Source of the DNA: a virus
Virus record (IMG/VR): IMGVR_UViG_3300030107_002093
Span: 1-64,000 of that record
Strand: one strand, 5' to 3'
Length of the DNA: 64,000 bases
The position numbers were made by a program, and so were the translations under genes. The notes under the pieces are model-generated. The model ran no database searches, was not told the origin of the DNA, and saw nothing but the letters and a program-made list of their open reading frames with translations. Shown one piece after another: positions 269-22,767 of this stretch. Positions within the stretch are counted from its first letter, which is position 1. The number at the start of each line of letters is the position of its first letter.

Positions 269-1735
269 ATGAGTTGGTTTGACATTCTCAAGGATATGAG
301 GGAAGACCTTGAGCAAGCCACTAGAACAGTAGACACAAGCAACCCCGCCGCAATAAGAGATGAAAGACTAGCAGACGAACAGGCCTATGCTCAAGCCAAC
401 ACACCTCCCCCTGCTATGACTGTTGGTAGTCAAGTGCCGGGAACAATGCGAAGAGCAGGGCAATATATTGCAGACAAGACGGCTCCGCTTAGTGCGAATG
501 TTAGACAGACCTTGCAACAAGGAACAGATGCGGCAGTGCAAACTGGTAGAAACATCATGCATGATGTAGCAACAGGGGCCAGAGGAACGGCAAGTCAAAT
601 TGGCAGAGGTGTTCGGAATATACCACAAAACATCGTGCAAGGTGCTAAGAATATGGCTCCAACCCCTACTAACATTGCGAGTTATCACCAATCCGCATCA
701 CCCGTCAAGAGTAAAAGAGGGGCAACTAGAAACGTTGGTGAGTCAGAGGAACAATTTCAAGAGAGGGTATCACAAATGGAAGGTAGAAATCAACCAATAC
801 TCAACGAAGAAGGGGCCAACTATCAGCAGTGGCTTAGAGAGAAGGGATATGCTGACACTGCTGGGAAGGCAAAGGCAAAGAATATCATAAGGGACTGGAC
901 TGGATTTGGTGGAACTAAGAAACCCACTGAATCACAGAGGAGAGAACATCTAGCGGAATACGAGGCACATATGCAAGAGCAGACTAAAGACCCAAATTGG
1001 CAAATGAGTAGAACACAAGAGGTAACTGACCCTGCTACATTGGAAAGCATTGACAGGCGAATAGGAGAAGTAGAAGATAAGTTTGAGACTCGCCTAAGAG
1101 ATGCTAGTGCTGAGGACAGAGTAGATATCCAACGTGAGAAGAACAACGCATTAGCAGAACTGAATCGCAAGAAGATAACTGGAACCGGGCAATCGACAAG
1201 GGAAGAAGTTGAAGCCGAAAGAGAGAGACTACACCCATACGAGAAAGCACCACCAAAGGAAAAAGATGGGAAAGCACCACCAAAGGAAGAAGAAGGACTA
1301 TCACAGAATGTGAAAGACCAATTGAGCAGTGCCGAGCAATGGGATGCGGGTAATTGGATGGGTGAAGTGAAGGATGACGGACAGACTACTTTTGGTAATA
1401 TAATGTCAGATGGCTCACAGGAATCTGGAGCCGCTAAAGCGGCGAGAGAAGCCAGAGAAAAGAAGGAAGCGGACAACGCGGAGAAAACGAAAGACAATAC
1501 CGTTCAAACTAGACTTGGTAGAGATGCGAAAGGGAGAAGACTGCCGGGATATGGTGGAAAGATACCAAAAGGCAAACTATCGGATTTCAGGTTAGATGAA
1601 GGACAGGGCTATGGTGAATTCAAAGACGGTGGAGAAGGTAATGTTGCTGAACATGAGGAACTAGTAGCAGAGAAAGATAAGGAGAAGAGAGAAGCAATCT
1701 CTGGTAAGCAAACAGGATTAGGTGACTTCTCATGA
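269..1735 (+). CDS. charged, probably disordered head-region protein with N-terminal MSWFDILK tag (putative internal virion protein)
   Basis: ATG at 269 follows AGGTGG SD; begins MSWFDILKD; amphipathic Ala/Gln/Gly-rich segment then E/K-rich region. Confidence 0.75.
   Translation: MSWFDILKDMREDLEQATRTVDTSNPAAIRDERLADEQAYAQANTPPPAMTVGSQVPGTMRRAGQYIADKTAPLSANVRQTLQQGTDAAVQTGRNIMHDVATGARGTASQIGRGVRNIPQNIVQGAKNMAPTPTNIASYHQSASPVKSKRGATRNVGESEEQFQERVSQMEGRNQPILNEEGANYQQWLREKGYADTAGKAKAKNIIRDWTGFGGTKKPTESQRREHLAEYEAHMQEQTKDPNWQMSRTQEVTDPATLESIDRRIGEVEDKFETRLRDASAEDRVDIQREKNNALAELNRKKITGTGQSTREEVEAERERLHPYEKAPPKEKDGKAPPKEEEGLSQNVKDQLSSAEQWDAGNWMGEVKDDGQTTFGNIMSDGSQESGAAKAAREAREKKEADNAEKTKDNTVQTRLGRDAKGRRLPGYGGKIPKGKLSDFRLDEGQGYGEFKDGGEGNVAEHEELVAEKDKEKREAISGKQTGLGDFS
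1243..1288 (+). repeat. 19-bp direct repeat (gaaagcaccaccaaaggaa) encoding KAPPKE twice
   Basis: Copies at 1243-1261 and 1270-1288, 27-nt period. Confidence 0.9.
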
Positions 1736-2388
1736 TTACGAGAAAGAGATGCGCACTTTGCAATCACGAAGACCGTGACCAATTTGAACAGGACTTGGAG
1801 AGCATTGCCATATCTCCCGATGAGTTGGACAATAGGATGAACTGGCCTAGTGGCACATCCTCAAGACATCAGAGGAATCACATGGCTGGCTACACCAATG
1901 CGTCTAACCCACGATGCAAGATTTGCATACACCCAATCAGAAGCGAGATTGAGAAACAAGTTCACGATGGGGCAATGACACCAACGGTTGCGGCTGAGGT
2001 TGTCGGTTGTTCGGAAGACCAGATAATGAGGCACATGAAGCACCACTTGCAACCACTAGTCCAACAGTCAGCCGCTCAACTAATCGCACAGAAGGACGTT
2101 GACGAGATTGGAGTCCTCAGCAATAACATCGGAAGGTTGGAGACAAAGGTGGATGAGTTGTTCGCACAGGATGGTGTAGACCCCAAGTATATTGACTCAC
2201 TAACCAAGTTGGCAAAGGAGATTCGTGAGAGCCTGAAGTATCTAATGGAGTTCAAGGGCAAGTTAGTCCACAAGAGGCAAGACACTATTATCGTTCATCA
2301 GATGCAAGTAATCAAGGAGGTTCTAGCACAGAACCACCCTGAAGTATGGTTAGATGTAAGAAAGCAAATGGAGGAGAAGATGCAATGA
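1732..2388 (+). CDS. tandem CxxCxH Zn-finger/HTH protein with C-terminal coiled coil; candidate terminase small subunit
   Basis: Two repeats (CALCNHEDR...RHQRNH and CKICIHPIR...RHMKHH), helical C-terminus, upstream of TerL; TerS identity is inferred. Confidence 0.45.
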   Translation: MITRKRCALCNHEDRDQFEQDLESIAISPDELDNRMNWPSGTSSRHQRNHMAGYTNASNPRCKICIHPIRSEIEKQVHDGAMTPTVAAEVVGCSEDQIMRHMKHHLQPLVQQSAAQLIAQKDVDEIGVLSNNIGRLETKVDELFAQDGVDPKYIDSLTKLAKEIRESLKYLMEFKGKLVHKRQDTIIVHQMQVIKEVLAQNHPEVWLDVRKQMEEKMQ

Positions 2389-2681
2389 GTTGGAAGGATA
2401 TAGTGAAAGCGAAGAAGGTATATGCCGATAGGAAATACAAGTTGGGATACCTGCTTTGTAGAAATAACTGCATAAGGCCTGTAGAAGAGGGCCAAGAATA
2501 CTGTGCATGGTGTGGTGATAACTTTGATTATCAGGTTCCACCACCAAAGGGATTCAAGTTCGACAAGGAGCCACCGAAGGAACACAAGGAGGCAAAACTC
2601 GGATGGAATCCCCCTTGGGTTCCAAAGAAACTTCATGAGAAAGCCAAGGATGATGCTCACACTCTAATGTATGGAAAGTGA
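2385..2681 (+). CDS. small Cys-rich (Zn-ribbon-like) protein with MSWKDIVK tag
   Basis: ATGA overlap with previous stop; CRNNC...CAWC. Confidence 0.7.
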   Translation: MSWKDIVKAKKVYADRKYKLGYLLCRNNCIRPVEEGQEYCAWCGDNFDYQVPPPKGFKFDKEPPKEHKEAKLGWNPPWVPKKLHEKAKDDAHTLMYGK

Positions 2682-2682
2682 T

Positions 2683-3243
2683 ATGATGAATAGGGAAGAA
2701 ACGCTACATAAGAAAATGAGCAAGGTTGCTCAAGTAGCGCGATTCATCAAGAGGAACTTACCTAAATGGAAAGTAGTTGAAACCATACCAGATAGGGTGC
2801 ATGGAGGCATAGTAAGATATACTGAAGCGAATCCTTCTGAACAACATGACCCTAAAAACGAGCCACATCAGATTAGTCTACCAAGTAGTCCCGCAGTGAA
2901 ATGGAAGGCTTGGTTAAAACAACAACTAGCACCTGCATTGGAAAAGAATGCGGAAGAGATAGGAGTTGACGGACAAATGAGAAGTCGATACAGAAATCAA
3001 GGAGGTTACAAATTGGCAAGTGATAATAAAGAAAGCAAAACATGGTTCAGTGTTCTGAAACTGGAAAAGGAAAATTGGGAAAGTTCTGAGGGTAGTAGAG
3101 GAGAACCTACACAAGACTTCCCTGATGACGATAAGTTCTGGGATTCAGTTGCAGAGACTGACGAAGAAGAAGAAAAAAGAACGAGAGAAGAAGAGTTAGT
3201 GGAAGAAAACAAACGCATTGACCGAGAGAATCGTGGTGAATAA
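2683..3243 (+). CDS. hypothetical protein with internal WFSVLK motif and acidic tail
   Basis: ORF track 2671-3243; ATG 2683 directly after the upstream stop; motif at 3043-3060. Confidence 0.65.
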   Translation: MMNREETLHKKMSKVAQVARFIKRNLPKWKVVETIPDRVHGGIVRYTEANPSEQHDPKNEPHQISLPSSPAVKWKAWLKQQLAPALEKNAEEIGVDGQMRSRYRNQGGYKLASDNKESKTWFSVLKLEKENWESSEGSRGEPTQDFPDDDKFWDSVAETDEEEEKRTREEELVEENKRIDRENRGE

Positions 3244-3244
3244 G

Positions 3245-3763
3245 ATGAGTTGGTTTGACATATTGAAGAGTCCACCGCCATACCCCAAATCTTCGGAGAA
3301 TAAATTGGGATACTACTATGATGAACTAAGACCAGTGACGAAGAAACAAGTGGATGCGCATTGGGAACAGAACGAACTTCCAGAAGAGATGAAGGAACGC
3401 AGGGTATGGGCTACAACTAACAGGCATCAGGTAGGGAAAGGTGGCTATAGAATAGAAGGATATGACCCTAGTAATGCAAAGGACATGGAGACACTGAGAG
3501 GAGTCATGGGTCGTGGTCGTGCATTGGAGAGGGGTAAGGATAAGGACAATGTATACCCTTCTAATAAACTGAGCAAAGACCTGAGACAAATCTTCGATGA
3601 CAAGATGGCACAAGACGAGGATTGGGTTATTCAACAAGTGAGAAACAAGATAAGAGCCTTCGATAACAAGGGCTTCAAGTTTAGCACACAAAACCTAGCC
3701 ATCTTGAGACAGAATAATGCTGAACCAGATGTGATAAGATTTGTTGAGGATAAATTGAGGTGA
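3245..3763 (+). CDS. hypothetical protein with MSWFDILK tag
   Basis: ATG 3245 follows GGTGA SD and the upstream TAA. Confidence 0.75.
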   Translation: MSWFDILKSPPPYPKSSENKLGYYYDELRPVTKKQVDAHWEQNELPEEMKERRVWATTNRHQVGKGGYRIEGYDPSNAKDMETLRGVMGRGRALERGKDKDNVYPSNKLSKDLRQIFDDKMAQDEDWVIQQVRNKIRAFDNKGFKFSTQNLAILRQNNAEPDVIRFVEDKLR

Positions 3764-3767
3764 TACA

Positions 3768-5414
3768 ATGACATGGCATACTGTTCTCAAAGGAAGACCC
3801 TTCTTGACTAAAGACGAGGTTAAATTTGCTGGACAGGCCACAGCCGCTCAAATGGCTTCTATCCCAATGGAGATTGAAGATAGCGTCAAGAGCAAGAAGC
3901 AACTGACTAGGCTAATCAACAAGATACAGAGGTATGAGGGTGAGGAGTTTGAGGAGAAATTCCAACAAGCAGGTTGGGACGCATCAGATAGAGAGGAGAT
4001 TCTAGAGTTGCTCAATAAAACAAGAGAAGAATTAACTCAGCCAACAAAGGACAATCAACCTCACATTGCTGATAAGATTCAAACGTTCTTGGATGGTAAC
4101 CATGATGCTCTATTGGAACTCATAGAAAGGAGCAAGATGAAGGGATTGGCTTCTGCTATTCAACAATGGAACAAGAAAAACGGGGATGAACTACGCGAGT
4201 ATCTGAAGGACAAGCCCGACCTTGCTGAGAAATTCAAGAAGGTCTTCAAGAGATTAGAATCCGTAGAGGAGAGGAAGAAGCAGGTATCACCTGATGCAAT
4301 CGGAGATGACTTGGTATACGACTATGTGAAGATGATAGTAAATGACCTGAAGTTACCAACTAAAGGGGATGAGATTAGACTAGGAAAAATATCCTATTTG
4401 CCTATCACCCACTCACAGGGAAATCTTGCGATAAAGGTCTATGGGTTAGCCCCTAACCAAGGTGGGAATTTACCACCTGCCACTGCATATATTCTGAAGA
4501 ACGAGGATGTAGACCTTGAGCAATTCCTCGCAGTTGCAGATACTAAGACAAGCACGAAGAAAGAAATCATATTGAATCGATTGAGAAGTAGCAAAGTTGG
4601 AGGAGCCATACAGGATGCATGGGACAATAGCGAAACACTTAGTGGATTTGAGAATACAATTGCCGCAGATAGGAATCTCACTAAGGACTTCAAGGAACTA
4701 ATGGAAGCCCTTGGAAGTGAGATGAAAGTAGAGGATATCACTACAGAGGTTAAGTTCTCCATTCCCACACAAGCCTATGAGAAGATGATGGCAGTAGATT
4801 ATGATGACTCATTGAAGGTATACGGCATTAATTCCGAGGATGCTCTTGAGGAGATGATGGATGAGCATGAGGAAGACCTCGCTAGTTTCAAGGAGAAGGT
4901 ATCTGGGTTCTATAGGCCAGTTGATGGAGAAACAAAGAAAAGGCTAGAGAATTCTGAAGTCCTAGAGGATGAAGGAATAGAACTATGGGATTCTGAAGGA
5001 CGCTTGAAGGAATTATCTTCTAGCATGGCAAGCGGTAAGGCATTCCCACAATATCTGCAAACCCTCGCAGAAGCAGAGAGTCCGAACAAGATAATCCTAG
5101 AAGCGGCAGAGGGAAATAAGAACCAAGTGATGATAGGAGATTTCGTCCTATACATGATTAGAATAGAACAAGTGTATGAGGATAGAGACAGTGAGGTAAA
5201 GGAAGCAGTTTACCAATACACAGTAGAGCAAAGTGAAGAGAATAAAGAGAGACTAACCGAAGCATTGTCTTCTACTCAGTATGGTAAAATCAGAACTGCC
5301 TTCCTTGAGGCGATAAAGAAAAAGATGTCAGAGTTGCTAAGTGATTACAACAGTAATTATCTACATGAGAAGAACACGGTAGAGCCGTTGGAGTGGTTGT
5401 GGGAGAGAACATGA
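3768..5414 (+). CDS. acidic helical protein with MTWHTVLK tag
   Basis: 548-aa ORF, GAGGTGA SD. Confidence 0.8.
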   Translation: MTWHTVLKGRPFLTKDEVKFAGQATAAQMASIPMEIEDSVKSKKQLTRLINKIQRYEGEEFEEKFQQAGWDASDREEILELLNKTREELTQPTKDNQPHIADKIQTFLDGNHDALLELIERSKMKGLASAIQQWNKKNGDELREYLKDKPDLAEKFKKVFKRLESVEERKKQVSPDAIGDDLVYDYVKMIVNDLKLPTKGDEIRLGKISYLPITHSQGNLAIKVYGLAPNQGGNLPPATAYILKNEDVDLEQFLAVADTKTSTKKEIILNRLRSSKVGGAIQDAWDNSETLSGFENTIAADRNLTKDFKELMEALGSEMKVEDITTEVKFSIPTQAYEKMMAVDYDDSLKVYGINSEDALEEMMDEHEEDLASFKEKVSGFYRPVDGETKKRLENSEVLEDEGIELWDSEGRLKELSSSMASGKAFPQYLQTLAEAESPNKIILEAAEGNKNQVMIGDFVLYMIRIEQVYEDRDSEVKEAVYQYTVEQSEENKERLTEALSSTQYGKIRTAFLEAIKKKMSELLSDYNSNYLHEKNTVEPLEWLWERT

Positions 5415-8245: not shown

Positions 8246-8249
8246 TTAG

Positions 8250-9017
8250 ATGGCAGAATTCCAAATGGCAGGGCCAATATCAGAAGATGAAGTCAAAGCA
8301 CGTTTTGCAGAACATGGCATAGATTACGAAACTAGAGCAGAGAGATACGAGAAACTCAACGGCACTCCCTTTGCTACGATAAACCCGAACTATTGGATAG
8401 CGTATTATCCAACAGTGGAAGAGGGCAAGCCATTGGCTGTTCAAGGCATCGGAGGATACAAGGATATCTATCTTCTAACTGGGTTGGTAAGCCACGCGGC
8501 GGAATCTGGTCTTAGCGAGGAAGAGACAAAAGGTGCTGGTAGTTGGATATCAAACAAAGTGATTGACATGCACAGCAACAAGCCAATCGTAGGAGCGGCA
8601 AAACCAGCCGGAGTTGGTGTGTTTGATAGACAAGGATTCCAGCCGATACAATTCGACTCAAATAACAAAGTCATTAATCAAGATGACATTCCTGATGACA
8701 TAAGGGAGGTCTTCACAATGTTGGAGAACGAAGGAAGTAAGACAACCGCAATCAGGAAACTCTACTACAAGCCTGTTGCCAAGTGGTTCTACAAAATCAA
8801 GAAGTTCGACCCCGCAAGACAGAGGGAACGATTGATGCAAAGGGTGCAAAGTAGTTCACAAAGGGACATCCAACCACAAGAGGAGAAGGAAACCTGTCAG
8901 ATTTGTGGTAGTGATAAGTTCTCATTCAATGGTCAGATGAAACCCATGCAAGACGGTAAGAAAGTCTGCAAGTTATGTGAGAGGAGATTCTATTCAACAC
9001 CGTCAAGTGCGGCATGA
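8250..9017 (+). CDS. GNAT-fold-like acetyltransferase domain plus C-terminal Zn ribbon
   Basis: KGAGSWI (motif A-like), GVGVFDRQGF (motif B-like), CQIC...CKLC; internal WFYKIKK between the domains. Confidence 0.5.
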   Translation: MAEFQMAGPISEDEVKARFAEHGIDYETRAERYEKLNGTPFATINPNYWIAYYPTVEEGKPLAVQGIGGYKDIYLLTGLVSHAAESGLSEEETKGAGSWISNKVIDMHSNKPIVGAAKPAGVGVFDRQGFQPIQFDSNNKVINQDDIPDDIREVFTMLENEGSKTTAIRKLYYKPVAKWFYKIKKFDPARQRERLMQRVQSSSQRDIQPQEEKETCQICGSDKFSFNGQMKPMQDGKKVCKLCERRFYSTPSSAA

Positions 9018-9026
9018 GGTGTTAGT

Positions 9027-9848
9027 ATGAGTTGGTTCGATATTCTAAAAATCAGTGGCAAGGAACTACTCAATGCTGTAGAATTCAGCGATACCCATTT
9101 CAAAGACAACCAGACTCCGAAAAGTGACCACGGCTACAGTGTGAAAAACACCACAATGACTAGACCACATTTTGAGGGAAAGTCACAATCAGTAGGCGCA
9201 CTAGACAAAGATGACCTCCAAGTAGTCAGGAGGCAAATAGGGGCCAAAGGTGAGGAGTGGGATTTGAATTTCTCATTCGCCGCTCCTGATAACGAGGATT
9301 ACATTGTCACATGGAGAAGGGTAAACACAAGAAGTGAATTGCCCGGTAGTGGCCTTTTACAAGCAAAAACAGGAAAAGCCAGACCTAAAGTCAGAGGATT
9401 CGGACATAATGATGCACCCAGAGGGATAGTTGTGTTTGATAGCATATACCCCACAGACGTTAATGCATATGATGACCCAATAGGAAATATAGAAGCAAAG
9501 ATGGCGGCTAATGAGGTCACTGATATTTTCCCTCTTTGGCCGAATGATGCCGAGAGATGGAAGAAAGTCAAGGGACAAGAAGAGGACGAGCCTGAAGTTA
9601 CTTGGACAGAGCGAGATGAGAAAGACTTGGAGTCATATAAAAAGAAACAAAGGAAATACGAAGCGAAAAAACGAGAGTTAGGGAACAAATACAAAGGCGA
9701 TGGTCAGTATGAATTCCGAAAGACTGAGATAGCACGACTAGAACAGAAAAGAACAAAGGCAATGGGTGGGGATAAGAAGCAAATCGATAACAAGAGAAGG
9801 CGAAAAGGAGGAGGAGGGCCACCTAATCCATTCGGGGGTAAGACCTGA
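9027..9848 (+). CDS. hypothetical protein with MSWFDILK tag and basic C-terminus
   Basis: GAGGTG SD; 273-aa ORF. Confidence 0.75.
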   Translation: MSWFDILKISGKELLNAVEFSDTHFKDNQTPKSDHGYSVKNTTMTRPHFEGKSQSVGALDKDDLQVVRRQIGAKGEEWDLNFSFAAPDNEDYIVTWRRVNTRSELPGSGLLQAKTGKARPKVRGFGHNDAPRGIVVFDSIYPTDVNAYDDPIGNIEAKMAANEVTDIFPLWPNDAERWKKVKGQEEDEPEVTWTERDEKDLESYKKKQRKYEAKKRELGNKYKGDGQYEFRKTEIARLEQKRTKAMGGDKKQIDNKRRRKGGGGPPNPFGGKT

Positions 9849-11290
9849 TGGAACTAGATGACATGGACTTCGTTTCTGCAATGGACATGGAGATGTCCAA
9901 GACATCCTTCCCATACTTCTTCCAGAACGTCCTCGGTATGATGTTCCCACCATACATGGAGGAATGGCTTGAGTCGATGCAGACGACTGATAGGACTGTC
10001 ATCATCTGTAGTCGTGACCACGGCAAGTCCGTCTTCATGCATTGTTGGGTTGTATGGAACCTAGTATTCCAAGAGCCACCATATCAGATGCTATACATCT
10101 CATCGAACCAGAAGCAGACTCTTGTTCACATGCGCGAGATTGACAGATACTTCAATCATCCAGCATTGAAGAAGTTCCGCCCCAGTAGGAACTGGGCCAT
10201 TGGTAACATACAACTCACTAATGGCAACGCAATCCTAGAGAGGTCAGTTGGCTCTCAGATTAGAGGACTCCATCCACAGGAGATTATCATTGACGACCCC
10301 TTGAAGGAGTTCAGTCTATCTGCTATCCAAAGAGTGACTGACTGGTTCTTCGGTGACATGATACCCACTCTTCACCACACATCCAACCTGCGAATGATTG
10401 GGACACCATTCACATACACTGACATCTTCGCACAATTGGAAGAGAACCAAGCATACACCGTAACCAAGTATCCCTGTTTCAATGCATTGAACGAACCACT
10501 ATGGCCTGAGAGATGGGATAGTGATGCTCTGTTACAAAGGAAGGCTGAGATTGGTTCCCTCAAGTTTACCCGTGAGTATCTGTGTGTTCCCATATCAACT
10601 GGAACCTCGCTGTTCAATCCAGAATTCATACAGAACTGTAAGAACAAGGAATACGTTCTGAAACTAGGAAATAGGAAGGACAAGGGATACAAGTATTACG
10701 TTGGGGTTGACCCAGCGATATCCACTGATGGTGACTACAATGTGATAACAGTCTTGGAAGTGGATGATGAGGCAAACAAAACCATTGTCCATGTAGACCG
10801 AGCAAAGAACGTTGAGTTCAGGGAAAACATAGAGAAGATTAGACTGATTGGTAAGATATTCCAACCGGAAGTGGTTCTCTATGAAACTAACACTTTCGCC
10901 AAGGCATTTACTCAGGAGTTGAGAAGTATTTCTGACTTGAACATCAAGGACTTTGACACCACTCGTAAGAAGAAGCAAGAGATAATACTCAACCTACAAA
11001 TGAACATAGAGAATGGGAAATTGAATTTCCCCTATGGCGATAATGCCAGCAGAAGGTTGACTAACCTGTTGATTGAGGAACTATCCATGTTCAGCATCAC
11101 GGAGTCTGGTCGCTTTGAGGGAGTAGGCGCACATGACGACTTGGTTATGAGCCTCGCTTTAGCCAATGCCGCGACTCAAGCACCAAGCGAGAACTTTATC
11201 CTCCTAGATGATATGGACTTGTTTGATACGACTCCGGTAAGACCTATGGGCAACGTTATGCCCGGAGGAATAATGGGATTGAATATCTAG
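9848..11290 (+). CDS. terL: terminase large subunit
   Basis: Walker A SRDHGKS, Walker B IIIDD, IGTP coupling motif, nuclease motifs GVDPA and HDDLVMS. Confidence 0.93.
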   Translation: MELDDMDFVSAMDMEMSKTSFPYFFQNVLGMMFPPYMEEWLESMQTTDRTVIICSRDHGKSVFMHCWVVWNLVFQEPPYQMLYISSNQKQTLVHMREIDRYFNHPALKKFRPSRNWAIGNIQLTNGNAILERSVGSQIRGLHPQEIIIDDPLKEFSLSAIQRVTDWFFGDMIPTLHHTSNLRMIGTPFTYTDIFAQLEENQAYTVTKYPCFNALNEPLWPERWDSDALLQRKAEIGSLKFTREYLCVPISTGTSLFNPEFIQNCKNKEYVLKLGNRKDKGYKYYVGVDPAISTDGDYNVITVLEVDDEANKTIVHVDRAKNVEFRENIEKIRLIGKIFQPEVVLYETNTFAKAFTQELRSISDLNIKDFDTTRKKKQEIILNLQMNIENGKLNFPYGDNASRRLTNLLIEELSMFSITESGRFEGVGAHDDLVMSLALANAATQAPSENFILLDDMDLFDTTPVRPMGNVMPGGIMGLNI

Positions 11291-12752: not shown

Positions 12753-14390
12753 ATGGCAGACGAGAAAAGGAGATTCAGCATTGGAAATTTGTTTAGGAGG
12801 ACTACCCCTAAGCCAGCAGATAGGACGGTATACAATCCGGGGATTCAAGAGAAGGACACATCATACCTATTGACTTCACCTGTTATCTATCACATTGCCC
12901 AACAGTCAGTGATTGTCAGGACATGTGTAACCCAGTTGAAGAATGAGGTATTCAGAAGAGGATATCTCTGGGAAGAGAAGTTCGTCAAGAAGTGCATGGA
13001 TTGCGGTAAGGAACACCAATCACCAGTAGACCAATGTGCAGAGTGTGAATCCCCCAATCTAGAGAAGCCCAACCCTGAGCAGTTGAAGTATGCGCAGAAG
13101 TTCCTAGAGGGCTATGTCAACAAGGCAGAGCAACTGTTCATTGACGTATTGAAGGAATTGGAGGATGACTTGAACATCATGGATGATGCCTATTTGGTTT
13201 TAGTTAAGGAATACTTCATGGATAACAACAACCAGATTCGTATGCATAGAATCAAGGAGGTCTATCGTGGCGACCCTGTGACTATGCACATCTACTCTAA
13301 CGACTTAGGGGAAAGGGGCAAGGGAGGGTATGTCTGTGTAAAACACAGAGATAGAATAGAAACGAGTTCGACTGGACTCTGTGAGGAATGCAACTCAGAA
13401 CTTCATCCAGTTCACTATGTCAATAGAGTGAAGGGAGAGGAGCAATACTTCACGAAGGGAGAGGTGTTGCATTTCAGCAAATACTCTCCCGGTAGGATGT
13501 ATGGGCTATCTCCAATAATCACACTATGGAATCATGTGACTACGCTAATCGCAATGGAGAACTACGTTAACTCATCATACACCAAGGCTAGAATGCCGAA
13601 GGGATTGCTCGCAGTCCAGACTAGGAACATTGACTCCATGAAGTCCTTCTGGCGAAGCGTCAAGGAGAAGATGGAGACTGACCCACACTTCATTCCTGTA
13701 ATGGGAATCGAGGCAGAGAACGGTAAGGGTTCGATTGAGTGGGTGAAGTTCATGGATAGCCTCAAGGAGATGGATTACATCTCTGTCAAGGATGACTTGA
13801 GAGATAGGATATCAGGTTTCTATGGAGTGAGCAAGGTCTTCATGGCAGATAACTCTGCAAGTGGTGGCCTGAACAATGAGGGTATGCAGATTCTAGTTAC
13901 GAACAGAGCGGTTGAGATGGCCCAGACAATCTGGAACAACTACGTCTTCCCATTCGTCACGCAGGAATTCGGAATCTTAGATTGGGAACTGAAACTCCCA
14001 CCTTCCGAGGAAGAGGATGAGATAGCCAAACTCCGTAAGAGGGAGATTGAAGTCAACGTTGCATCCGCTATCAAGAACCTTGGATTTGAGGTCAATATGG
14101 ATGACGAAGGACGTTTCACCTATGTGAAGCCACCACAACCAGAAGACCAACAGGGACAAGACGAAGTAGAACTAGACCCATACGCTGGAACCAATATCGA
14201 TGCTGGTCATTTAGGTCAGATGATGGAAGCGGGTAATAAACCCTCAATGGCAGATGCGGGTAAACCAGCAGAGGTAAAATCTAGGAATAAGCCTAGTATG
14301 AGCGTTGGGCCTGATAAGAGATTCAGTGGATTGCCGAAAGACGCAGGTAATGAAAACGTGGATAAGCGAACAGAGAGGCGAGTCGGTTGA
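12753..14390 (+). CDS. portal protein with Zn-ribbon insertions
   Basis: Position after TerL; EVLHFSKYSPGRMYGLSPI, MPKGLL and ISGFYGVSKVF portal-like segments; CMDC/CAEC and CVKH/CEEC inserts. Confidence 0.88.
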   Translation: MADEKRRFSIGNLFRRTTPKPADRTVYNPGIQEKDTSYLLTSPVIYHIAQQSVIVRTCVTQLKNEVFRRGYLWEEKFVKKCMDCGKEHQSPVDQCAECESPNLEKPNPEQLKYAQKFLEGYVNKAEQLFIDVLKELEDDLNIMDDAYLVLVKEYFMDNNNQIRMHRIKEVYRGDPVTMHIYSNDLGERGKGGYVCVKHRDRIETSSTGLCEECNSELHPVHYVNRVKGEEQYFTKGEVLHFSKYSPGRMYGLSPIITLWNHVTTLIAMENYVNSSYTKARMPKGLLAVQTRNIDSMKSFWRSVKEKMETDPHFIPVMGIEAENGKGSIEWVKFMDSLKEMDYISVKDDLRDRISGFYGVSKVFMADNSASGGLNNEGMQILVTNRAVEMAQTIWNNYVFPFVTQEFGILDWELKLPPSEEEDEIAKLRKREIEVNVASAIKNLGFEVNMDDEGRFTYVKPPQPEDQQGQDEVELDPYAGTNIDAGHLGQMMEAGNKPSMADAGKPAEVKSRNKPSMSVGPDKRFSGLPKDAGNENVDKRTERRVG

Positions 14391-14712: not shown

Positions 14713-14725
14713 GGGGGCTGATTAG

Positions 14726-15904
14726 TTGTCATACATGGATATCCTCAGAAAGCAGGGTGGGGAAGTCCATGATGACATCTATGACATCAAGGGGAATCTC
14801 ACCCCAAAGCAATTGAGGACTGCATCTAGCAAATGGAATGAGGAACAATTTGGCCCTAACCTACTAGCACAACCTGCTCCACTAAAAGACAGAAGGGCGA
14901 GAGCAGATGGAGATTGGAAAACCAATCCCGGCTTCATGGCTAATTCAAGTAAGGTTCTAGATAGAATAGAGGCATTGCCATCCGCTACTACTCCCGAAGA
15001 GATGATGAGTGCAGAATACTCATTGAGAGGCGAGATAGAAGAAATCCTAGAAGGCTTGCAAGAAGGCTATGTAAAGGAGATGGAACGCAGAGGCAAGCAA
15101 AAAGAGCAATTCAAACAACGGGTCTTCGATGTAGACGCAATGGAAGAGATACTCCGGATGACTGCCAAGTTCGATAACCCAGCCATGTTAGAGGAGAAGT
15201 TCCCACAGAAAGAGAAGTTCATCAAGGATTGGGGAACGGATTTCGCTTCCTACAAGGACAAGATAGATGCCTTCCTGTATTACGGTGAGCCAGTAGCAGG
15301 TTCGGTCAGAGAGATGTTCCTTGAATCTCCGAATGCTTCTAGATTCGATAAGGAGTCCTCTGAGTGGATGGAAGGAGAGGAATCAGCATACAAGAAGTAT
15401 AATGGCAAACTCTCCAAAGAGGTATGGGAGGACTTGATGAACTTCTTGGGCTTAGAAATCATGCGTGGTTCTGATAAGGATATTTCTAGAGGAAGATTAG
15501 AACAACACATACAATTCGATGAGAAGAACCTTGACCAGATTTTCCACTTGATACCAGAGGACAATCTACTAGAGAAATTCCCAGTATTGTTTGAAGAGGA
15601 CTCATTCGATGATTTAGAGAGTGCGCTCTACATTCTAATAGAAGATGTCATGGAAATGCATGATGACTATCTGGATGCTGATGAAACCGATGAGAAGACA
15701 GAAGATAACATCGAGAAGTATCTAACAGCAATAGAGTTCCTGATGCATGTCTTTGAGATAACAAAGACGGATGATTACGTTAATGAGAAAGTATTGAAGG
15801 AACTAGAAGAGATAGAGAGTCCAAGGCCATTCCAACCCCATAGAGAATTCAGAAATATAATAGACGCACATGATGTGTGGGATGAAGAGGAGGAGTCTGA
15901 ATGA
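14726..15904 (+). CDS. acidic protein with MSYMDILRK tag variant
   Basis: TTG start, 392 aa. Confidence 0.75.
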   Translation: MSYMDILRKQGGEVHDDIYDIKGNLTPKQLRTASSKWNEEQFGPNLLAQPAPLKDRRARADGDWKTNPGFMANSSKVLDRIEALPSATTPEEMMSAEYSLRGEIEEILEGLQEGYVKEMERRGKQKEQFKQRVFDVDAMEEILRMTAKFDNPAMLEEKFPQKEKFIKDWGTDFASYKDKIDAFLYYGEPVAGSVREMFLESPNASRFDKESSEWMEGEESAYKKYNGKLSKEVWEDLMNFLGLEIMRGSDKDISRGRLEQHIQFDEKNLDQIFHLIPEDNLLEKFPVLFEEDSFDDLESALYILIEDVMEMHDDYLDADETDEKTEDNIEKYLTAIEFLMHVFEITKTDDYVNEKVLKELEEIESPRPFQPHREFRNIIDAHDVWDEEEESE

Positions 15905-16224
15905 GTTGGCAATCTATCCTAAAAACCAATGGTCTAGTAGAGAAACTAGAGCCTAAACAGAAGAAGAGAATAAAGAAACTCCTACAGGCGGCTCAACCAA
16001 CAGAGTTCATGGGTCAGGAGATAGCGCAATTGTCTGATTTGTTGGAAGAGATGAAGGGTCTTGACTTAGTGAAGAACGATAAGAACATGCAGAAGAAGTT
16101 TGAGAAGTTCGATGAAAACAACTTAGACCTAGTTGCTACAGCCTCCGAACTACGGAAGGATTACGAGACACTATACAATCAGTTGAGAAAAGAGATTTAC
16201 CCAAAGAAGGAGAGGAAGAAATGA
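15901..16224 (+). CDS. coiled-coil protein with MSWQSILK tag
   Basis: GGAGG SD, 107 aa; start overlaps the upstream stop. Confidence 0.75.
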   Translation: MSWQSILKTNGLVEKLEPKQKKRIKKLLQAAQPTEFMGQEIAQLSDLLEEMKGLDLVKNDKNMQKKFEKFDENNLDLVATASELRKDYETLYNQLRKEIYPKKERKK

Positions 16225-16406
16225 GTTGGCAAGATATATTGAAGAAGATTCCCATCCCTAAAGAAACCGAAGGTAACTTTAGAGGAAAAGAACCTGCTAC
16301 TGCTGAAGGCAGATACGGCACTAAAGTCACACCCGAAGACATAGAAAGGGAAATGGAAGAAAGAAGAAAGGAAGATGAGGAACAAGGGATTCCTCCGATG
16401 GATTGA
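16221..16406 (+). CDS. small protein with MSWQDILK tag
   Basis: ATGA overlap; 61 aa. Confidence 0.7.
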   Translation: MSWQDILKKIPIPKETEGNFRGKEPATAEGRYGTKVTPEDIEREMEERRKEDEEQGIPPMD

Positions 16407-16816
16407 TTGAAATGAACATGAGAGGAATACTACAGGACAACCTTCGCAAGCAGAAGTGGTTCAGCATCATTAAGCAAGATATTGGTGACCTCGCTGGTGA
16501 GATTGCTGACATGCTGGACAACAACGAGGCCATTATGGGTGTGACTCCCGATGGTGACTACGATGACATGCTGGATGGATACAGGGACAGTGGTGAAACA
16601 CATGTTACAGACTACATCTCATTAGAGCCAACATACCAACACGAAGAGGATGAGGAAGTGACAATAGAATTCGATTTGAACTTCTGGGACTACAAAAATC
16701 ACCTTAGACTAGGTTCATATACAGGTGATAGTGGCTACTACATAGCGATGGAAGATTGGGGCGAGGAAGATAGAGAAGCACTACTGGCCCTGAAGGAACA
16801 TTTGGAGGAGATATAA
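16403..16816 (+). CDS. highly acidic protein with near-N-terminal WFSIIK motif
   Basis: Start uncertain (16403, 16412 or 16418); motif at 16457-16474. Confidence 0.7.
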   Translation: MIEMNMRGILQDNLRKQKWFSIIKQDIGDLAGEIADMLDNNEAIMGVTPDGDYDDMLDGYRDSGETHVTDYISLEPTYQHEEDEEVTIEFDLNFWDYKNHLRLGSYTGDSGYYIAMEDWGEEDREALLALKEHLEEI

Positions 16817-17052
16817 TGACAAGCGAAGAAAACAATGAGATGATACTACTACTGAAGGAACTAGTCAATAAAGTCAAGTCACTTGAGGAGGTCGTCTATC
16901 AGAAAGATAATCTACTTATGAAAAGTGGACTCGTAGTAGTTGATAGCCCAACGCCATCACTAGGCAATGAAACAACCGCATTCTCAGGAGATACAGTAGC
17001 AAAGATGGATTGGTCACAGATTAGCGATATCATAGAGACAATAGAGGGATAG
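16816..17052 (+). CDS. small coiled-coil protein resembling a miniature scaffold
   Basis: Heptad N-half, NLLMK-S, C-terminal MDWSQISDIIE similar to scaffold ISWSDIHSIVE. Confidence 0.65.
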   Translation: MTSEENNEMILLLKELVNKVKSLEEVVYQKDNLLMKSGLVVVDSPTPSLGNETTAFSGDTVAKMDWSQISDIIETIEG

Positions 17053-17053
17053 T

Positions 17054-17245
17054 ATGGCATGGAGAGAACTTCTGAAGAAAAACCTCGATGAAGAAGAGGA
17101 AGAACTTGAGAAGATACTACCCGCAGTGGCGGCAGGGGCAAGAGCCGCCGCCTCTTCACCTACAGGAAAGAAAGTAATAGCACAAGGCGCACAGATGGGT
17201 GCTAATTATGCAATGGACAAATATCAACAAAACAAAAAGCAGTGA
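17054..17245 (+). CDS. 63-aa protein: MAWRELLK tag, acidic spacer, amphipathic Ala/Gly-rich peptide
   Basis: Translated sequence; GAGG SD. Confidence 0.7.
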   Translation: MAWRELLKKNLDEEEEELEKILPAVAAGARAAASSPTGKKVIAQGAQMGANYAMDKYQQNKKQ

Positions 17246-17251
17246 TGAAAA

Positions 17252-17494: not shown

Positions 17495-17506
17495 GTGTGG
17501 GGATGA

Positions 17507-20149: not shown

Positions 20150-20150
20150 A

Positions 20151-20158
20151 TTAAATAG
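20151..20158 (+). promoter_or_regulatory. candidate archaeal TATA box (TTAAATAG) upstream of the protease-capsid genes
   Basis: AT-rich box in the only spacer between ligase and protease; position only. Confidence 0.3.
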
Positions 20159-20170
20159 TAAGAAAAAAAG

Positions 20171-21385
20171 GTGATTGGAGTGTTAGCAACAACAGGAGTA
20201 TTATTGAAAGCAGAAAACAATGCTGAGTTTAGCATTCTGAAATCAGATAATCTAGTAATTGGAGGGTATGCATCTATAGAAATTGTAGACAAGCAAAACG
20301 ACTTAATTACACTAGAAGCATTGGAAGAAGCAGTCAAGAAATACATGACGAAAGAAAAATACAGAAATGTAATGTCAAATCATTCAAATGTTCAAGTCGG
20401 GGAGGTCATAGAAAAATACCGAGATTCCAACGGTGTCCTACACAAAACTGCTGTAGACGATGTTGGGTTCTATGTAGTAATCAAGATGCGCGATGACATC
20501 GAGAAGGCTAAGGAAATCTCAAGAGGTATTAGGAAAGGAACATTACGGTCTTTCAGCATAGGTGGACAGGCGATATCAAAGAAACAGAGAAAATCTGAGG
20601 AGTTTGGGGAATACAACGAGATAGAAAAACTTGAGTTGCATGAAGTTACTGTCTGTGAAAAAGGAATAAACCCGGAAGCAAAATTCGACATTTTGAAAAT
20701 GGAGGAAAAGAAAATGAGTGGAAAACTGGAAAAAGCCCTTGAGGAGTTGAATAGCCTGATGAAGCAGGTCAATTCGCTCCAAAAGGAAGAAGAAAGCGAA
20801 GAAATAATGGAGAAAGGTGACGAGTATATGGACACTGAACCCGAAGAGGACATGGGAGAAATGGGCGGCGAAGACGACCTAGAACTTTCAGACGACAGCG
20901 AGGAGAAGGCTCTTGATGAGGACTCAACAAGAGACTACGAGGCTGGCGAGGAAGTTGTTAGCGGCGGAAACCCGACTGCAACCCCAGCACCTCTGAAGGT
21001 TTCTAAGGGATTGGAGAATGGCGATTTCTCTACTCTTGACCTAAGTGTGGAGAATGTCGAGAAGGCATATGAAGCATTCAAGGCCGAGAAGTTAGAGGCA
21101 ATGGCATATGATTCCCTTAACAAGGAGTTCAGTGAGCGTCTAACCGCAGAACTGTCTGTAAAGAAGTCGGCGGCTGAGAGAGCAGAGTATGATGCTCGCA
21201 CAGACGTAGCGGCTCTTAAGGAAGAGTTCGCGGAACTACGCAAGTCCCTTTCGGCAGAAAGCGATGAGATAAAGAAGGCAAGAGAGGTTGCTTTTGAGAT
21301 TCCTGAAGGAATCCCAACCAATACTCTTCAGGCTTCTGAGATTTCATGGAGTGATATTCACAGTATTGTGGAGAGGTATCAGTGA
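20171..21385 (+). CDS. HK97-type prohead protease fused to acidic/coiled-coil scaffold
   Basis: IGGYAS..VDKQNDLI, SNH (His), RSFSIGG (Ser), LHEVTVCEKGINPEA; true start may be GTG 20180 after AGGTGA. Confidence 0.9.
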   Translation: MIGVLATTGVLLKAENNAEFSILKSDNLVIGGYASIEIVDKQNDLITLEALEEAVKKYMTKEKYRNVMSNHSNVQVGEVIEKYRDSNGVLHKTAVDDVGFYVVIKMRDDIEKAKEISRGIRKGTLRSFSIGGQAISKKQRKSEEFGEYNEIEKLELHEVTVCEKGINPEAKFDILKMEEKKMSGKLEKALEELNSLMKQVNSLQKEEESEEIMEKGDEYMDTEPEEDMGEMGGEDDLELSDDSEEKALDEDSTRDYEAGEEVVSGGNPTATPAPLKVSKGLENGDFSTLDLSVENVEKAYEAFKAEKLEAMAYDSLNKEFSERLTAELSVKKSAAERAEYDARTDVAALKEEFAELRKSLSAESDEIKKAREVAFEIPEGIPTNTLQASEISWSDIHSIVERYQ

Positions 21386-21396
21386 GGTGATTAAGT

Positions 21397-22767
21397 ATGA
21401 CAACAGGACATATTAGAACAATGGCAGACCTAGAAGCCGCAACCTACGGCATGGTCGGAGGAACAGGGAACGCCCTGCTAAAGAGCAGTGGAGTAGTTGG
21501 AGGACTCGGAACGCCACACGATGCGTCATCGAATGCCTTCAGTGCGGCAAGTGGTCTAGGTGACCTTTACAACTTGCTATACGGACAGAAAGTCTGGTCG
21601 ATGCTAAATCAGGAAGTCAATGCACTGTCAATGATTTCCAAGAGGCCATACACTTCCAGTGGTTGGAGAGTTCTAAAGAGCCGACCTGCTGGTGGTAGTG
21701 GCTCTGCATTCGGTATTGGAACAACTGACCCCGGTGCAAACACGGCTGACCTATCTGGAATAGCCGCCGACATGATTGGTGGTGTTGCAGAGAACGCTGA
21801 ACTTGGTGGAGATGCTTCTTTCAGAGCATTGTCGCCAGAATACACCAAACTATACGTCAGTCCAAAGACTGTTGCACATCTGTTTGAGTTCTCAGAACTT
21901 GGAATGGAGATGGCCGCAATTGACGATGGAGTAGGAGACATCCGCTCAATCGTTAGAGAGGACATGGGCAAGCACCACGCTGAAGTTCAGAACAAGATGC
22001 TACTAATGCCACTTGAGCATTACGACCACGCATCTTATGCTGACATCGAGAACAACTATACGTCACTATACAAGATTGTGTCGTCTGCTGGTGAACTAGC
22101 CGCAATGGGTGACGCAGACATGACTGCAAACAGCACTACCCCCGCAGACCTACCAACACAACTGGTTAGGATTTTCGGAGATGACAGGACTGTAACCAGA
22201 AGCGGTGGAGACTACACCGGAACGGATAACTTCCTTTCGGCTGAGGTTGACTTCGGTTCAGGATACGCCGCAGGTGACGCAAGAGTTCTAACACTGACTC
22301 TTCTAAACGACATGATTAGGAGAATCAGGCAGAACGGTGGAAACCCCAAGGTTATGCTAACTGGATACGATACTATCCAGCACATCTCAGACCTGCTACA
22401 GAGCCAAGAGAGGTTCATGGACAGGAAGGAGATTGTTCCAACGCACAACGGTGTAAGAGGAGTGAAGGGTGCAGAGGTTGGCTTTAGGGTCGCCACTTAC
22501 TACGACATCCCAATTATCCCAGCAAAGGACATGGCACAGACTGGTAACGCAACGGCTAACAAGTTGAGTGACATCATGCTACTAGACACAGACCATCTGT
22601 GGCTATCGGTCATGAAGCCTACTCAATACTTTGAGAACGGTATTACCAATGGTGACCCATTCGGCGTTGGTTCTCTAGGGAATCAGGGAATGTATCGCAC
22701 AATGGGCGAGACTGGTTGCTCCTTCTTCAAGGGCCAAGGAAAGATTACGAACATAACGAGTGCATAG
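21397..22767 (+). CDS. major capsid protein (HK97 fold)
   Basis: Follows protease, strong GAGGTGA SD, 456 aa, C-terminal FKGQGKITNI; candidate maturation site ALLK-S. Confidence 0.88.
   Translation: MTTGHIRTMADLEAATYGMVGGTGNALLKSSGVVGGLGTPHDASSNAFSAASGLGDLYNLLYGQKVWSMLNQEVNALSMISKRPYTSSGWRVLKSRPAGGSGSAFGIGTTDPGANTADLSGIAADMIGGVAENAELGGDASFRALSPEYTKLYVSPKTVAHLFEFSELGMEMAAIDDGVGDIRSIVREDMGKHHAEVQNKMLLMPLEHYDHASYADIENNYTSLYKIVSSAGELAAMGDADMTANSTTPADLPTQLVRIFGDDRTVTRSGGDYTGTDNFLSAEVDFGSGYAAGDARVLTLTLLNDMIRRIRQNGGNPKVMLTGYDTIQHISDLLQSQERFMDRKEIVPTHNGVRGVKGAEVGFRVATYYDIPIIPAKDMAQTGNATANKLSDIMLLDTDHLWLSVMKPTQYFENGITNGDPFGVGSLGNQGMYRTMGETGCSFFKGQGKITNITSA

Follow-up and report, generated by a model that had tools for sequence, protein, structure and literature searches.

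In tailed viruses, the scaffold is anchored by its C-terminal helix to the inner side of the capsid shell during assembly. Short terminal helices dock the scaffold or the protease to the inner capsid surface in P22 (gp8), 80α (gp46) and HK97 (the C-terminal tail of the protease), and the HK97 protease tail can bring foreign proteins into proheads. In SaPI1, a look-alike helix on CpmB binds the same site as 80α gp46. Encapsulins take up diverse cargo through a short terminal peptide, of the G-S-L type in its consensus, that binds the interior of the HK97-fold shell. In the L27/Prp type of motif, the capsid and scaffold proteins of 80α share a short N-terminus that imitates a ribosomal protein of the host and that a protease of the host removes. 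In phage T4, the internal proteins IPI-III carry a capsid-targeting sequence (CTS), a ~10-residue N-terminal peptide that is the sole conserved part of a diverse and fast-evolving set. The CTS brings these proteins into the prohead core and is then cut off by the prohead protease, and the cargo leaves the particle together with the DNA (PMC3012670, PMC9024508). In phage P1, a 10-30-residue N-terminal signal sends the anti-defence cargo DarB into the capsid, some Dar proteins are processed by the prohead protease, and incorporation is hierarchical via DarA/Hdf (PMC9024508, PMC12810830).

Here, we analysed a window of 64,000 nucleotides, positions 1 to 64,000 of the IMG/VR record IMGVR_UViG_3300030107_002093, from a viral genome of 102.7 kb. 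Compared with the published magroviruses (PMC5434244), the virus has a ~100-kb terminally redundant genome, a halovirus-like major capsid protein (MCP), portal and protease, and, as in the group A/B type (Magrovirales), a second ATP-dependent ligase and a nuclease within the structural module. A series of its proteins starts with one octapeptide, M-[S/N/T]-W-x-[D/S/E/N]-[I/V]-[L/I/V]-K, and conservation ends after Lys8 (Table 1). This shared start is real and far above chance. The DNA pattern ATGNNNTGGNNNNNNVTNNTNAAR, which encodes M-x-W-x-x-[ILV]-[ILV]-K, matches the window eight times, each time at a start codon of the + strand, against 0.11 expected and a maximum of one in 100 dinucleotide shuffles of the window. 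In the whole genome, 11 tag copies lie on the forward strand and none on the reverse strand, and a reversed-pattern control gave no match. The picture is the same in 80 related loci (1.4 Mb), with 299 tagged starts on the portal strand, two on the opposite strand, and the carriers on the head-module side. Five other complete genomes contain 35 further matches, which with few exceptions share the strand of the portal and lie within about -12 to +5 kb of it. We found no published description of this tag in the literature.

Table 1. Tagged genes, neighbouring core genes and motif copies in the window.
Feature	Position	Strand	Remarks
C-terminal part of tagged gene, Pro-rich, M-G-W-E-D-V-L-K	2..259	+	starts at genome 102259, crosses the terminal repeat
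Tagged ORFan, 488 aa, M-S-W-F-D-I-L-K	269..1735	+	tag at 269-292
Tagged ORFan, 98 aa, M-S-W-K-D-I-V-K	2385..2681	+	ATGA overlap with stop of upstream HTH gene
N-terminally untagged ORF	2671..3243	+	internal W-F-S-V-L-K at 3043-3060 (PSSM 14.3, best internal site in the genome)
Tagged ORFan, 172 aa, M-S-W-F-D-I-L-K	3245..3763	+	Pro-rich linker after the tag
Tagged ORFan, 548 aa, M-T-W-H-T-V-L-K	3768..5414	+	strict tag in 14/20 family members
GNAT acetyltransferase family member	8250..9017	+	W-F-Y-K-I-K at 8784-8801, then extra Zn-ribbon module
Tagged ORFan, 273 aa, M-S-W-F-D-I-L-K	9027..9848	+	directly 5' of TerL; in only 7 loci, thus not a core packaging gene
Large terminase, untagged	9848..11290	+	Terminase_6N/6C, near cutoff
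Portal protein, untagged	12753..14390	+	Phage_portal
392-aa protein just 3' of portal, TTG start	14726..15904	+	conserved M-[S/T]-[F/Y]-M-D-[I/V]-L-[K/R]
Tagged protein, 107 aa, M-S-W-Q-S-I-L-K	15901..16224	+	sole widely conserved tagged family, 90 members
Tagged ORF, 61 aa, M-S-W-Q-D-I-L-K	16221..16406	+	
ORF, 137 aa	16403..16816	+	W-F-S-I-I-K at residues 19-24 (16457-16474)
Mini-scaffold, 78 aa	16816..17052	+	coiled coil; N-L-L-M-K-S-G-x-V-V (Lys 16921-16923); C-terminal K-M-D-W-S-Q-I (17005-17028)
Tagged ORF, 63 aa, M-A-W-R-E-L-L-K	17054..17245	+	
S78 prohead protease fused to coiled-coil scaffold domain	20171..21385	+	F-S-I-L-K 20228-20242; F-D-I-L-K 20684-20698; C-terminal I-S-W-S-D-I-H helix (predicted) about 21341-21361
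Major capsid protein	21397..22767	+	conserved N-A-L-L-K-S-S-G-V-V (invariant or >90%) at residues 25-34, Lys 29 at 21481-21483

Every N-terminus that the first-pass annotation had listed is present where it was placed. M-T-L-E-L-L-L-K at 5411, however, is not kept in 57 orthologues and most likely arose by chance, whereas M-S-Y-M-D-I-L-R-K at 14726 is a genuine F/Y variant, conserved within its family. W-F-Y-K-I-K at 8784, given as an internal copy, sits at the conserved C-terminal tag position of the GNAT family but is a weak copy here. Nor does the tagged block begin at 269 as proposed; across the terminal repeat it continues back to about 97.2 kb of the genome and takes in five to six further tagged genes. 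A W-K-K-I-V-K at 17636 in the ligase was considered as a further copy and rejected, as it is not conserved.

The carriers have little in common besides the tag. Tagged ORFs number 267 of 1665 (~16%) and fall into 109 BLAST-unrelated families, as counted after removing the first 10 residues of each ORF; at least 104 of these have a tagged member outside this genome. Only seven of 104 family representatives match Pfam, and the domains seen, where any, are GNAT, PAP2, DUF6321 and Zn ribbons. TM-like segments occur in none of the 109 tagged families, compared with eight of 132 untagged ones. The tag marks 40% of accessory ORFs versus 6% of ORFs in the largest families (at least 40 members), and nearly all of the latter come from one conserved tagged family. 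The core genes for terminase, portal, ligase, protease and MCP lack it. Tagged genes are confined to the stretch from the start of the late operon to the protease/MCP genes, where they form tight arrays in a gene-turnover hotspot; between portal and ligase, 53 of the 94 families are tagged. The first-pass term head-region proteins is an assumption; the carriers are ORFans that lie within the head module and upstream of it. In addition, 25 copies of the motif stand at extreme C-termini, where 1.2 would be expected; they belong to four families, among them the GNAT acetyltransferases, whose members end in [S/N]-W-[F/W]-x-x-[M/I/L/V]-[K/R].

Two scaffold proteins of the virus itself end in a similar motif. 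The mini-scaffold, which is present in 62 of 81 sequences searched (80 loci and this genome), and the protease-scaffold fusion carry [M/I]-[S/D]-W-x-[D/E]-I-H at their C-termini, and the scaffold C-termini of relatives read M-[S/D]-W-[D/E]-D-I-H-K. When the 32,424 internal positions of this genome are ranked by a 6-mer PSSM built from the N-terminal tags, the mini-scaffold C-terminus comes 3rd and the protease-scaffold C-terminus 9th; across their families, both lie within the top 0.014-0.036% of all internal positions. The likeness spans six positions and comes from a directed comparison. With the full 8-mer PSSM, the scaffold tails of this genome do not stand out, since His/Ser takes the place of the Leu-Lys of the tags. 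Judged by sequence, the tag matches the scaffold C-terminal S-W-x-D-I-H helix better than it matches F-x-I-L-K. An outgroup without tags retains W-x-x-V-H at the end of its scaffold, which makes the scaffold motif the older one. AF2 predicts a long coiled-coil helix (residues 293-374) in the protease-scaffold and places the tail motif in a short terminal helix (393-403), at a pLDDT of only 57-86 in this region and within models that are poor overall (47 for the protease-scaffold, 35 for the MCP); the mini-scaffold appears alike in layout by sequence. The first-pass idea of a portable tag on variable, unrelated proteins, restricted to the head-module side, thus gains from this likeness to scaffold and protease C-termini and from selection at the peptide level (see below).

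Given its likeness to the scaffold tails of the same virus, the tag most probably serves as a docking label for capsid loading. We give about even weight to the specific proposal that it forms a docking helix at the protein terminus, imitates the scaffold and thereby brings cargo into proheads. The octapeptide would form a short amphipathic helix, N-capped by Ser/Asn/Thr at position 2, with Trp3, Ile6 and Leu7 on one face, and would thereby copy, as a portable terminal docking peptide, the helix that ends the protease-scaffold fusion and the 78-aa mini-scaffold. If so, its carriers, which bear it at the N-terminus in most cases and at the C-terminus in a few, would be co-assembled into the prohead. 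They may then end inside the virion as cargo that changes fast and is probably delivered together with the DNA. The S78 protease probably cuts the MCP and the scaffolds after [L/M]-K and might, as an optional step, also clip the tag after Lys8. Some observations count against cargo docking. Each genome has about 15-18 carriers, some of 500 aa, which is more cargo than in most phages of comparable size. In addition, a few tag matches in relatives fall beyond the head side, and many tagged genes lie upstream of the terminase, at the start of the rightward operon, where they could be expressed early or in the middle phase, before proheads exist.

This upstream position, typical of early or accessory genes, would also suit a tag that docks its carriers to another hub without encapsidation. 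The hub could be viral (the portal, the terminase, the conserved 74/80-aa proteins or the 944-aa protein) or a host machine, and the tag would bring accessory proteins to where assembly or replication takes place, or to a target in the host. The terminal position, the amphipathic N-capped helix and the unrelated carriers fit a short linear binding motif of this kind equally well. However, the sole other conserved copies of the motif are on two scaffold-like proteins, which are known to work inside the prohead, and the tagged genes are interleaved with the portal, mini-scaffold and protease genes. A scan of 596 Gb of prokaryotic genomes with the AGT/GAY codon version of the tag returned 36 single, taxonomically scattered matches against ~26 expected by chance (our own estimate), and none in Poseidoniales. 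Cellular genomes therefore carry this version at chance level only, with no sign that it mimics a host protein terminus. We regard docking to such a hub as unlikely.

Less probable still is that the motif is mainly a recognition and cut site of the protease, [I/L/V]-[L/M]-K, which marks module boundaries in polyprotein-like head products and leaves targeting to other means. The HK97 S78 protease cuts after Lys, and the magrovirus enzyme matches PF04586 (Peptidase_S78; E = 5e-10, 40.2 bits, cutoff 21), S78_2 and the PHROG head maturation protease, with invariant His and Ser columns in the alignment; by sequence, it has no match in PDB. Conserved [L/M]-K-[S/A] sites are found in the MCP, the mini-scaffold and the protease. 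A-L-L-K-S near the MCP N-terminus, pointed out in the first-pass annotation, is confirmed, with A-L-L-K invariant or >90% conserved in 35 relatives, and corresponds to V-M-K-A in the outgroup and L-M-K-S in HVTV-1. N-L-L-M-K-S-G occurs in the mini-scaffold. The copies said to bracket the protease domain (F-x-I-L-K-S-D and F-D-I-L-K) are both present, with residues invariant in the 35 relatives; one of them still falls within the Pfam S78 model, at its end, and may be just a structural strand, a point against cleavage as the main role. W-F-T-V-L-R-S-S-G-A-V within a 334-aa protein at genome 100020 also fits, although the pattern that includes it was defined after the sites had been seen, which makes its statistic circular. 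In some genomes, the GNAT-family motif sits at the junction with an added module. At extreme C-termini, however, cleavage would release nothing, which argues against it as the main function, and removing an N-terminal 8-mer or zero to four C-terminal residues would serve no purpose if the peptide did not act beforehand. Trp3 and the N-cap, the most conserved positions, lie far from the scissile bond, and position 9 of the tag has no Ser/Ala preference, unlike the residue after the conserved [L/M]-K of the MCP, mini-scaffold and protease.

It is very improbable that the stretch acts chiefly at the DNA level, as a cassette junction (ATGAGTTGG...) for translational coupling and recombinational shuffling with the peptide as a by-product. 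Ser2 is encoded by AGT 137 times and by TCN about five times, while AGT makes up only 24% of Ser codons. Starts that overlap the upstream stop as ATGA are found in 48% of tagged versus 13% of untagged genes, and the tight arrays in the turnover hotspot would suit shuffling. The AGT bias is nevertheless explained by the A needed for the ATGA overlap together with the gap between AGY and TCN, which single substitutions do not bridge. At positions 4-8, synonymous codons vary freely while the amino-acid classes are kept, with conservative I/V/L swaps and all six Leu codons in use at Leu7, so it is the peptide that is selected; copies at C-termini and in the scaffold tails, moreover, lie away from any start codon. 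That the carriers are fast-diverging paralogues of one ancestral gene, with the N-terminus as its last conserved remnant, is similarly improbable, because the uniform AGT codon and local paralogue arrays (e.g. four genes at genome 97.4-100.0 kb) are outweighed by lengths from 49 to over 850 aa, at least 104 families without a BLAST link, differing domains, families with both tagged and untagged members and a motif at either end, and even then eight residues conserved alone would imply the same function.

Magroviruses are among the most abundant archaeal viruses of the surface ocean. If the tag is an encapsidation signal, sequence alone would identify the proteins that an uncultivated, globally abundant archaeal virus carries into its host, and roughly one in two accessory genes next to the head module could be relabelled from hypothetical to candidate injected effector. 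It would be the first capsid-targeting system described for an archaeal virus, with an unusually clear cargo signal derived from a scaffold docking helix. A broader proposal, which we put forward only tentatively, is that magroviruses load into their capsids and inject with the DNA a hypervariable arsenal (>100 families and 10-20 members per genome, including enzymes such as a GNAT acetyltransferase) by means of a tag copied from the scaffold helix, the tag DNA serving as a junction for cargo swaps. In practice, the tag offers a testable eight-residue handle for putting foreign proteins into HK97-fold shells, and M-S-W-x-D-I-L-K starts in arrays are a simple metagenome marker for magrovirus contigs and fast-evolving cargo regions.

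Among the known systems, encapsulins work without portal, protease, scaffold or genome, and the consensus of their cargo peptide differs from the magrovirus tag. Unlike the L27/Prp-type N-terminus, the tag is at chance level in cellular genomes (AGT/GAY version, 596 Gb). The P1 signal has no consensus shared across many proteins, as the tag has. Like the T4 CTS, the magrovirus tag is a short N-terminal peptide common to otherwise unrelated proteins, here as read from sequence. The CTS, however, ends in Glu, whereas the tag ends in Lys and is unrelated in sequence, and the magrovirus protease is of the HK97 type (Peptidase_S78/S78_2 in Pfam) rather than the gp21 type of T4. The magrovirus host is archaeal, and the tag is on about 15-18 carriers per genome and in over 100 families, compared with a handful of carriers per T-even phage. 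In addition, the magrovirus motif, unlike the CTS, also occurs at C-termini and resembles a scaffold tail. Like the docking helices of known scaffolds, the tail of the magrovirus protease-scaffold is modelled as a short terminal helix after a coiled coil. In contrast to mimicry of the CpmB type, the magrovirus look-alike helix is mostly N-terminal and is spread over more than 100 unrelated accessory families.

The + strand of the window has 12 copies of the strict peptide motif W-x-x-[ILV]-[ILV]-K and the - strand has one; eight of the 12 open a gene, in the form M-[S/T/A]-W-x-x-[ILV]-[ILV]-K. At the DNA level the pattern is observed 8 times, where dinucleotide shuffles predict 0.11; genome-wide it is found 11 times forward, never in reverse, and never with a reversed-pattern control. 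The proposal of the first-pass annotation that unrelated proteins share one tag is borne out by this excess and by the 109 BLAST-unrelated tagged families (55 of them singletons) that remain when the first ten residues are removed. It had also been claimed that tail and replication genes lack the tag, and both the tail region (22-59 kb) and the replication genes of the minus strand (59-92 kb) are free of copies. Three further pattern matches and two looser copies lie at 97.2-102.3 kb of the genome, a region contiguous with the window start because of the terminal repeat. MTLELLLK at 5411, once counted as a tag, is not conserved among 57 orthologues and drops out. For the 392-aa protein encoded just after the portal (14726), an F/Y variant of the tag is found family-wide and its inclusion stands.

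Coordinates of the features discussed
Feature	Position	Strand	Remarks
Start-codon tags	269, 2385, 3245, 3768, 9027, 15901, 16221, 17054	+	strict peptide pattern
218-aa protein	1732-2388		Cys pairs; HTH_20 match just under cutoff
Predicted GNAT acetyltransferase	8250-9017		
Large terminase	9848-11290	+	untagged
HNH-like protein, 483 aa	11299-12750	+	weak HNH-endonuclease PHROG match, E = 7e-5, residues 278-408; untagged
Portal	12753-14390	+	untagged
Mini-scaffold, 78 aa	16816-17052		
ATP-dependent DNA ligase-domain protein, 880 aa	17507-20149	+	PF01068, E = 6e-26, residues 254-439; untagged
S78 prohead protease with coiled-coil, scaffold-like C-terminal half	20171-21385	+	untagged
MCP	21397-22767	+	untagged
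H-L-W-L-S-V-M-K in MCP, residues about 400-408	22594-22620		invariant; fits loose tag pattern
Protein with C-terminal SAP domain	23220-23693		E = 1.5e-10; just downstream of MCP
Small-GTPase-like protein	24681-25352		weak Roc/Arf/SRPRB matches, E about 4e-3; just downstream of MCP

The ends of the 102,725-bp record, of which the window is the first 64 kb, repeat each other. By eye, window 1-60 and genome 102666-102725 have a 21-mer in common, so the assembly is circular or terminally redundant, and a tagged gene runs across the junction (genome 102259 to window 259). Four tandem tagged paralogues are located at genome 97392-99992 (5392-7992 in locus L248); in these the tag leads into another conserved stretch, P-L-I-S-I-P-K ... 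I-K-K-P-K-K, beyond which they diverge.

The MCP shares ~25% identity with its counterparts in HVTV-1 and HCTV-1, tailed viruses of haloarchaea. The HNH-like protein between terminase and portal is kept in 79 relatives, and a nuclease inserted in the structural module has been described for magroviruses (PMC5434244). The 880-aa protein, located between the mini-scaffold and the protease and conserved in 77 relatives, corresponds to the 'structural-module ligase' published for magrovirus groups A/B; no match was found for its N-terminal ~250 aa or C-terminal ~440 aa. The features seen here, a ligase and a nuclease in the structural module, a ~100-kb genome and halovirus-like head genes, agree with what is published as the signature of these groups (PMC5434244). 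The 944-aa protein is a further untagged core gene. No relative of the protease was found in a PDB sequence search. The internal H-L-W-L-S-V-M-K of the MCP makes up half of all 'internal' matches; it probably serves a structural purpose in the capsid fold and has no relation to the tag.

We retrieved 80 related loci (1.4 Mb) via the portal protein at 71-97% identity. Of the tagged starts that open an ORF of 40 codons or more, 299 are on the same strand as the portal and 2 on the opposite one, and the tag is present on 267 of 1665 called ORFs. In five other complete genomes the tags cluster from ~12 kb upstream to 5 kb downstream of the portal with three outliers. The outlier tag-pattern starts are at 60157 in genome G001 and at 44470 and 68657 in G003 (the records behind loci L042 and L009); one lies directly after the MCP and two are far off, one of these on the opposite strand. 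Among the IMG/VR matches listed for one codon version of the tag, most stretches can be recognised as magrovirus by their genes (43-95% identity to TerL, portal, ligase, protease or MCP, or else the HTH and 387-aa genes), the remaining ones have further tagged ORFs alone, and the densest has up to 17 tags per 14 kb. No tags were found in HVTV-1, whose 'head assembly' protein shows no relation to the one encoded at 14726, or in a closer outgroup with a 43% identical MCP. In bacterial and archaeal genomes (596 Gb) the AGT/GAY codon version of the DNA pattern occurs 36 times, singly and in scattered taxa, none of them Poseidoniales; this is about level with the roughly 26 that we estimate from the information content of the pattern. 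The matches listed from a search of 5.8 billion proteins all had at least 69% identity; a representative protein search recovered divergent MCPs, and a second query for divergent relatives returned nothing. The tag is a property of the whole virus clade.

Pfam matched 7 of 104 tagged family representatives, weakly or in isolation. The tagged proteins of the window had no Pfam or PHROGs match (genes from 269 to 26.7 kb searched), Pfam gave DUF1540 alone for genome 92-102 kb, and ESM Atlas gave no usable match for two large carriers. TM-like segments were found in 0 of the 109 tagged families against 8 of 132 untagged ones. The strict tag marks 40% of accessory + strand ORFs versus 6% of ORFs in the largest families, the latter almost all from one conserved tagged family (15901), and tagged-family members failing the strict pattern mostly have degenerate versions. 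The portal-ligase interval of 2.4-5.7 kb holds 94 families over 76 loci, 53 of them tagged, which sit among four conserved small genes. The 9027 protein was rejected as small terminase, its family being found in 7 loci only. The 218-aa protein, which many relatives keep among their tagged ORFans, may have a regulatory role or be a candidate small terminase.

Among 228 distinct N-termini, position 1 of the tag is M (100%), position 2 is S, N, T, D or G (60, 11, 11, 5 and 3%), position 3 is W (100%, by construction), and position 8 is K (95%) or R (5%). Between them, position 4 is F/E/Q/K, position 5 D/S/E/N, position 6 I/V and position 7 L/I/V. Conservation ends abruptly beyond position 8, where the residues are hydrophilic and somewhat Pro-rich. 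The residues at position 2 are the classic helix N-cap set, and in a two-turn helix Trp3, Ile6 and Leu7 share one face.

Sequences like the tag are found at the ends of the scaffold proteins. The C-terminus of the protease-scaffold is [L/M/I]-[S/T]-W-x-[D/E]-[I/V/L]-H. The mini-scaffold, present in 62 of 81 sequences (the 80 loci and this genome) and BLAST-linked to the protease-scaffold C-terminal region, is a coiled coil ending K-M-[D/S/E]-W-x-[D/E]-I-[H/N/S]-K-[I/L]-V; its tail is M-S-W-D-D-I-H-K, one residue off the tag, in many relatives. When the 32,424 internal positions of this genome are scored with a matrix of the first six tag positions that had N-terminal tags as its only input, the tail of the mini-scaffold comes 3rd and that of the protease 9th. 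Family-wide, the scaffold tails score within the top 0.014-0.036% of some 440,000 internal positions, whether six or eight tag positions are used. The full 8-mer PSSM did not recover them in this genome because of His/Ser in place of Leu-Lys. According to a poor AF2 model (35-sequence alignment, pLDDT 47), the protease-scaffold tail forms a short terminal helix after an 80-residue helix; the MCP model was also poor (35-sequence alignment, pLDDT 35). The untagged outgroup retains W-x-x-V-H at the scaffold end, so that of the two the scaffold motif is older and the tag is the copy. About half of our confidence goes to the tag being a scaffold-mimicking capsid-docking signal.

The core motif also occurs at extreme C-termini (25 versus 1.2 expected, in four families). 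From profile and Pfam searches, we identify the family conserved upstream of the terminase as a predicted GNAT acetyltransferase (best Acetyltransf_1 E = 1.4e-9; Acetyltransf_10 in 12 of 27 members); a small terminase was rejected on the same searches. Most members end [S/N]-W-[F/W]-x-x-[M/I/L/V]-[K/R]. Here and in a few further genomes an extra module follows the motif: a C-x-x-C Zn-ribbon in this genome, and in others a basic module otherwise encoded by a tagged gene of its own. A signal that can sit at either end of a protein is easier to explain as a docking helix than as a cleavage site. Such a helix might serve a docking role other than scaffold mimicry, which, set against the likeness to the scaffold tails, we consider unlikely.

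That the tag is mainly a cleavage mark is still less probable. MCP residues 25-34 are N-A-L-L-K-S-S-G-V-V, invariant or >90% conserved, so the A-L-L-K-S noted earlier near the MCP N-terminus is real; the outgroup MCPs have V-M-K-A and I-M-K-A and HVTV-1 has L-M-K-S at the same place, and the mini-scaffold has N-L-L-M-K-S-G-x-V-V. These conserved [L/M]-K-[S/A] sites are compatible with an HK97-like protease cutting after Lys. The bracketing of the protease domain by F-x-I-L-K is borne out: F-x-I-L-K-S-D just before the domain and A-K-F-D-I-L-K at its end are both invariant in 35/35 sequences. The second falls within the end of the Pfam S78 model and may be one of the strands of that fold. A 334-aa protein (genome 100020) has W-F-T-V-L-R-S-S-G-A-V, the tag core with MCP-like downstream residues, a pattern defined post hoc. 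No Ser/Ala preference was seen at tag position 9 among the 228 N-termini. Tag removal is possible though less likely than not, and the model does not require it.

DNA-level or paralogue-remnant explanations take what probability remains. Tag codons 4-8 vary synonymously, with all six Leu codons at Leu7, which argues for selection on the peptide, and an mRNA-only element was rejected on this ground. Ser2 is encoded by AGT 137 times versus about 5 for TCN. An ATGA overlap with the upstream stop, present in 48% of tagged genes versus 13% of others, accounts for the A at +4, and no single substitution converts an AGY serine codon into a TCN one or the reverse. The AGT bias therefore fits common descent with translational coupling and does not indicate an RNA element. 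A secretion or lipid signal was also rejected, as hydrophobic core and Cys are both missing, and so was a PIP box, for want of an aromatic pair. The tag is a real, clade-wide, peptide-level terminal signature on a large, fast-turnover set of soluble ORFans beside the head genes.

We found no description of the tag; in the two magrovirus papers searched, 'N-terminal' is absent and 'motif' is used of an HTH alone. The likeness to scaffold tails recalls the HK97 protease tail and the pair 80alpha gp46/SaPI1 CpmB. In function, the T4 capsid targeting sequence (CTS) comes nearest to the tag. The T-even internal proteins are a highly diverse set in which the CTS alone is conserved (PMC3012670, review), and in P1 the N-terminal signal of DarB spans 10-30 residues (PMC9024508). 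The tag lies outside the T4 system, however, since motif and protease family both differ. If the tag does mimic the scaffold tail, it would be a variant of capsid targeting sequences.
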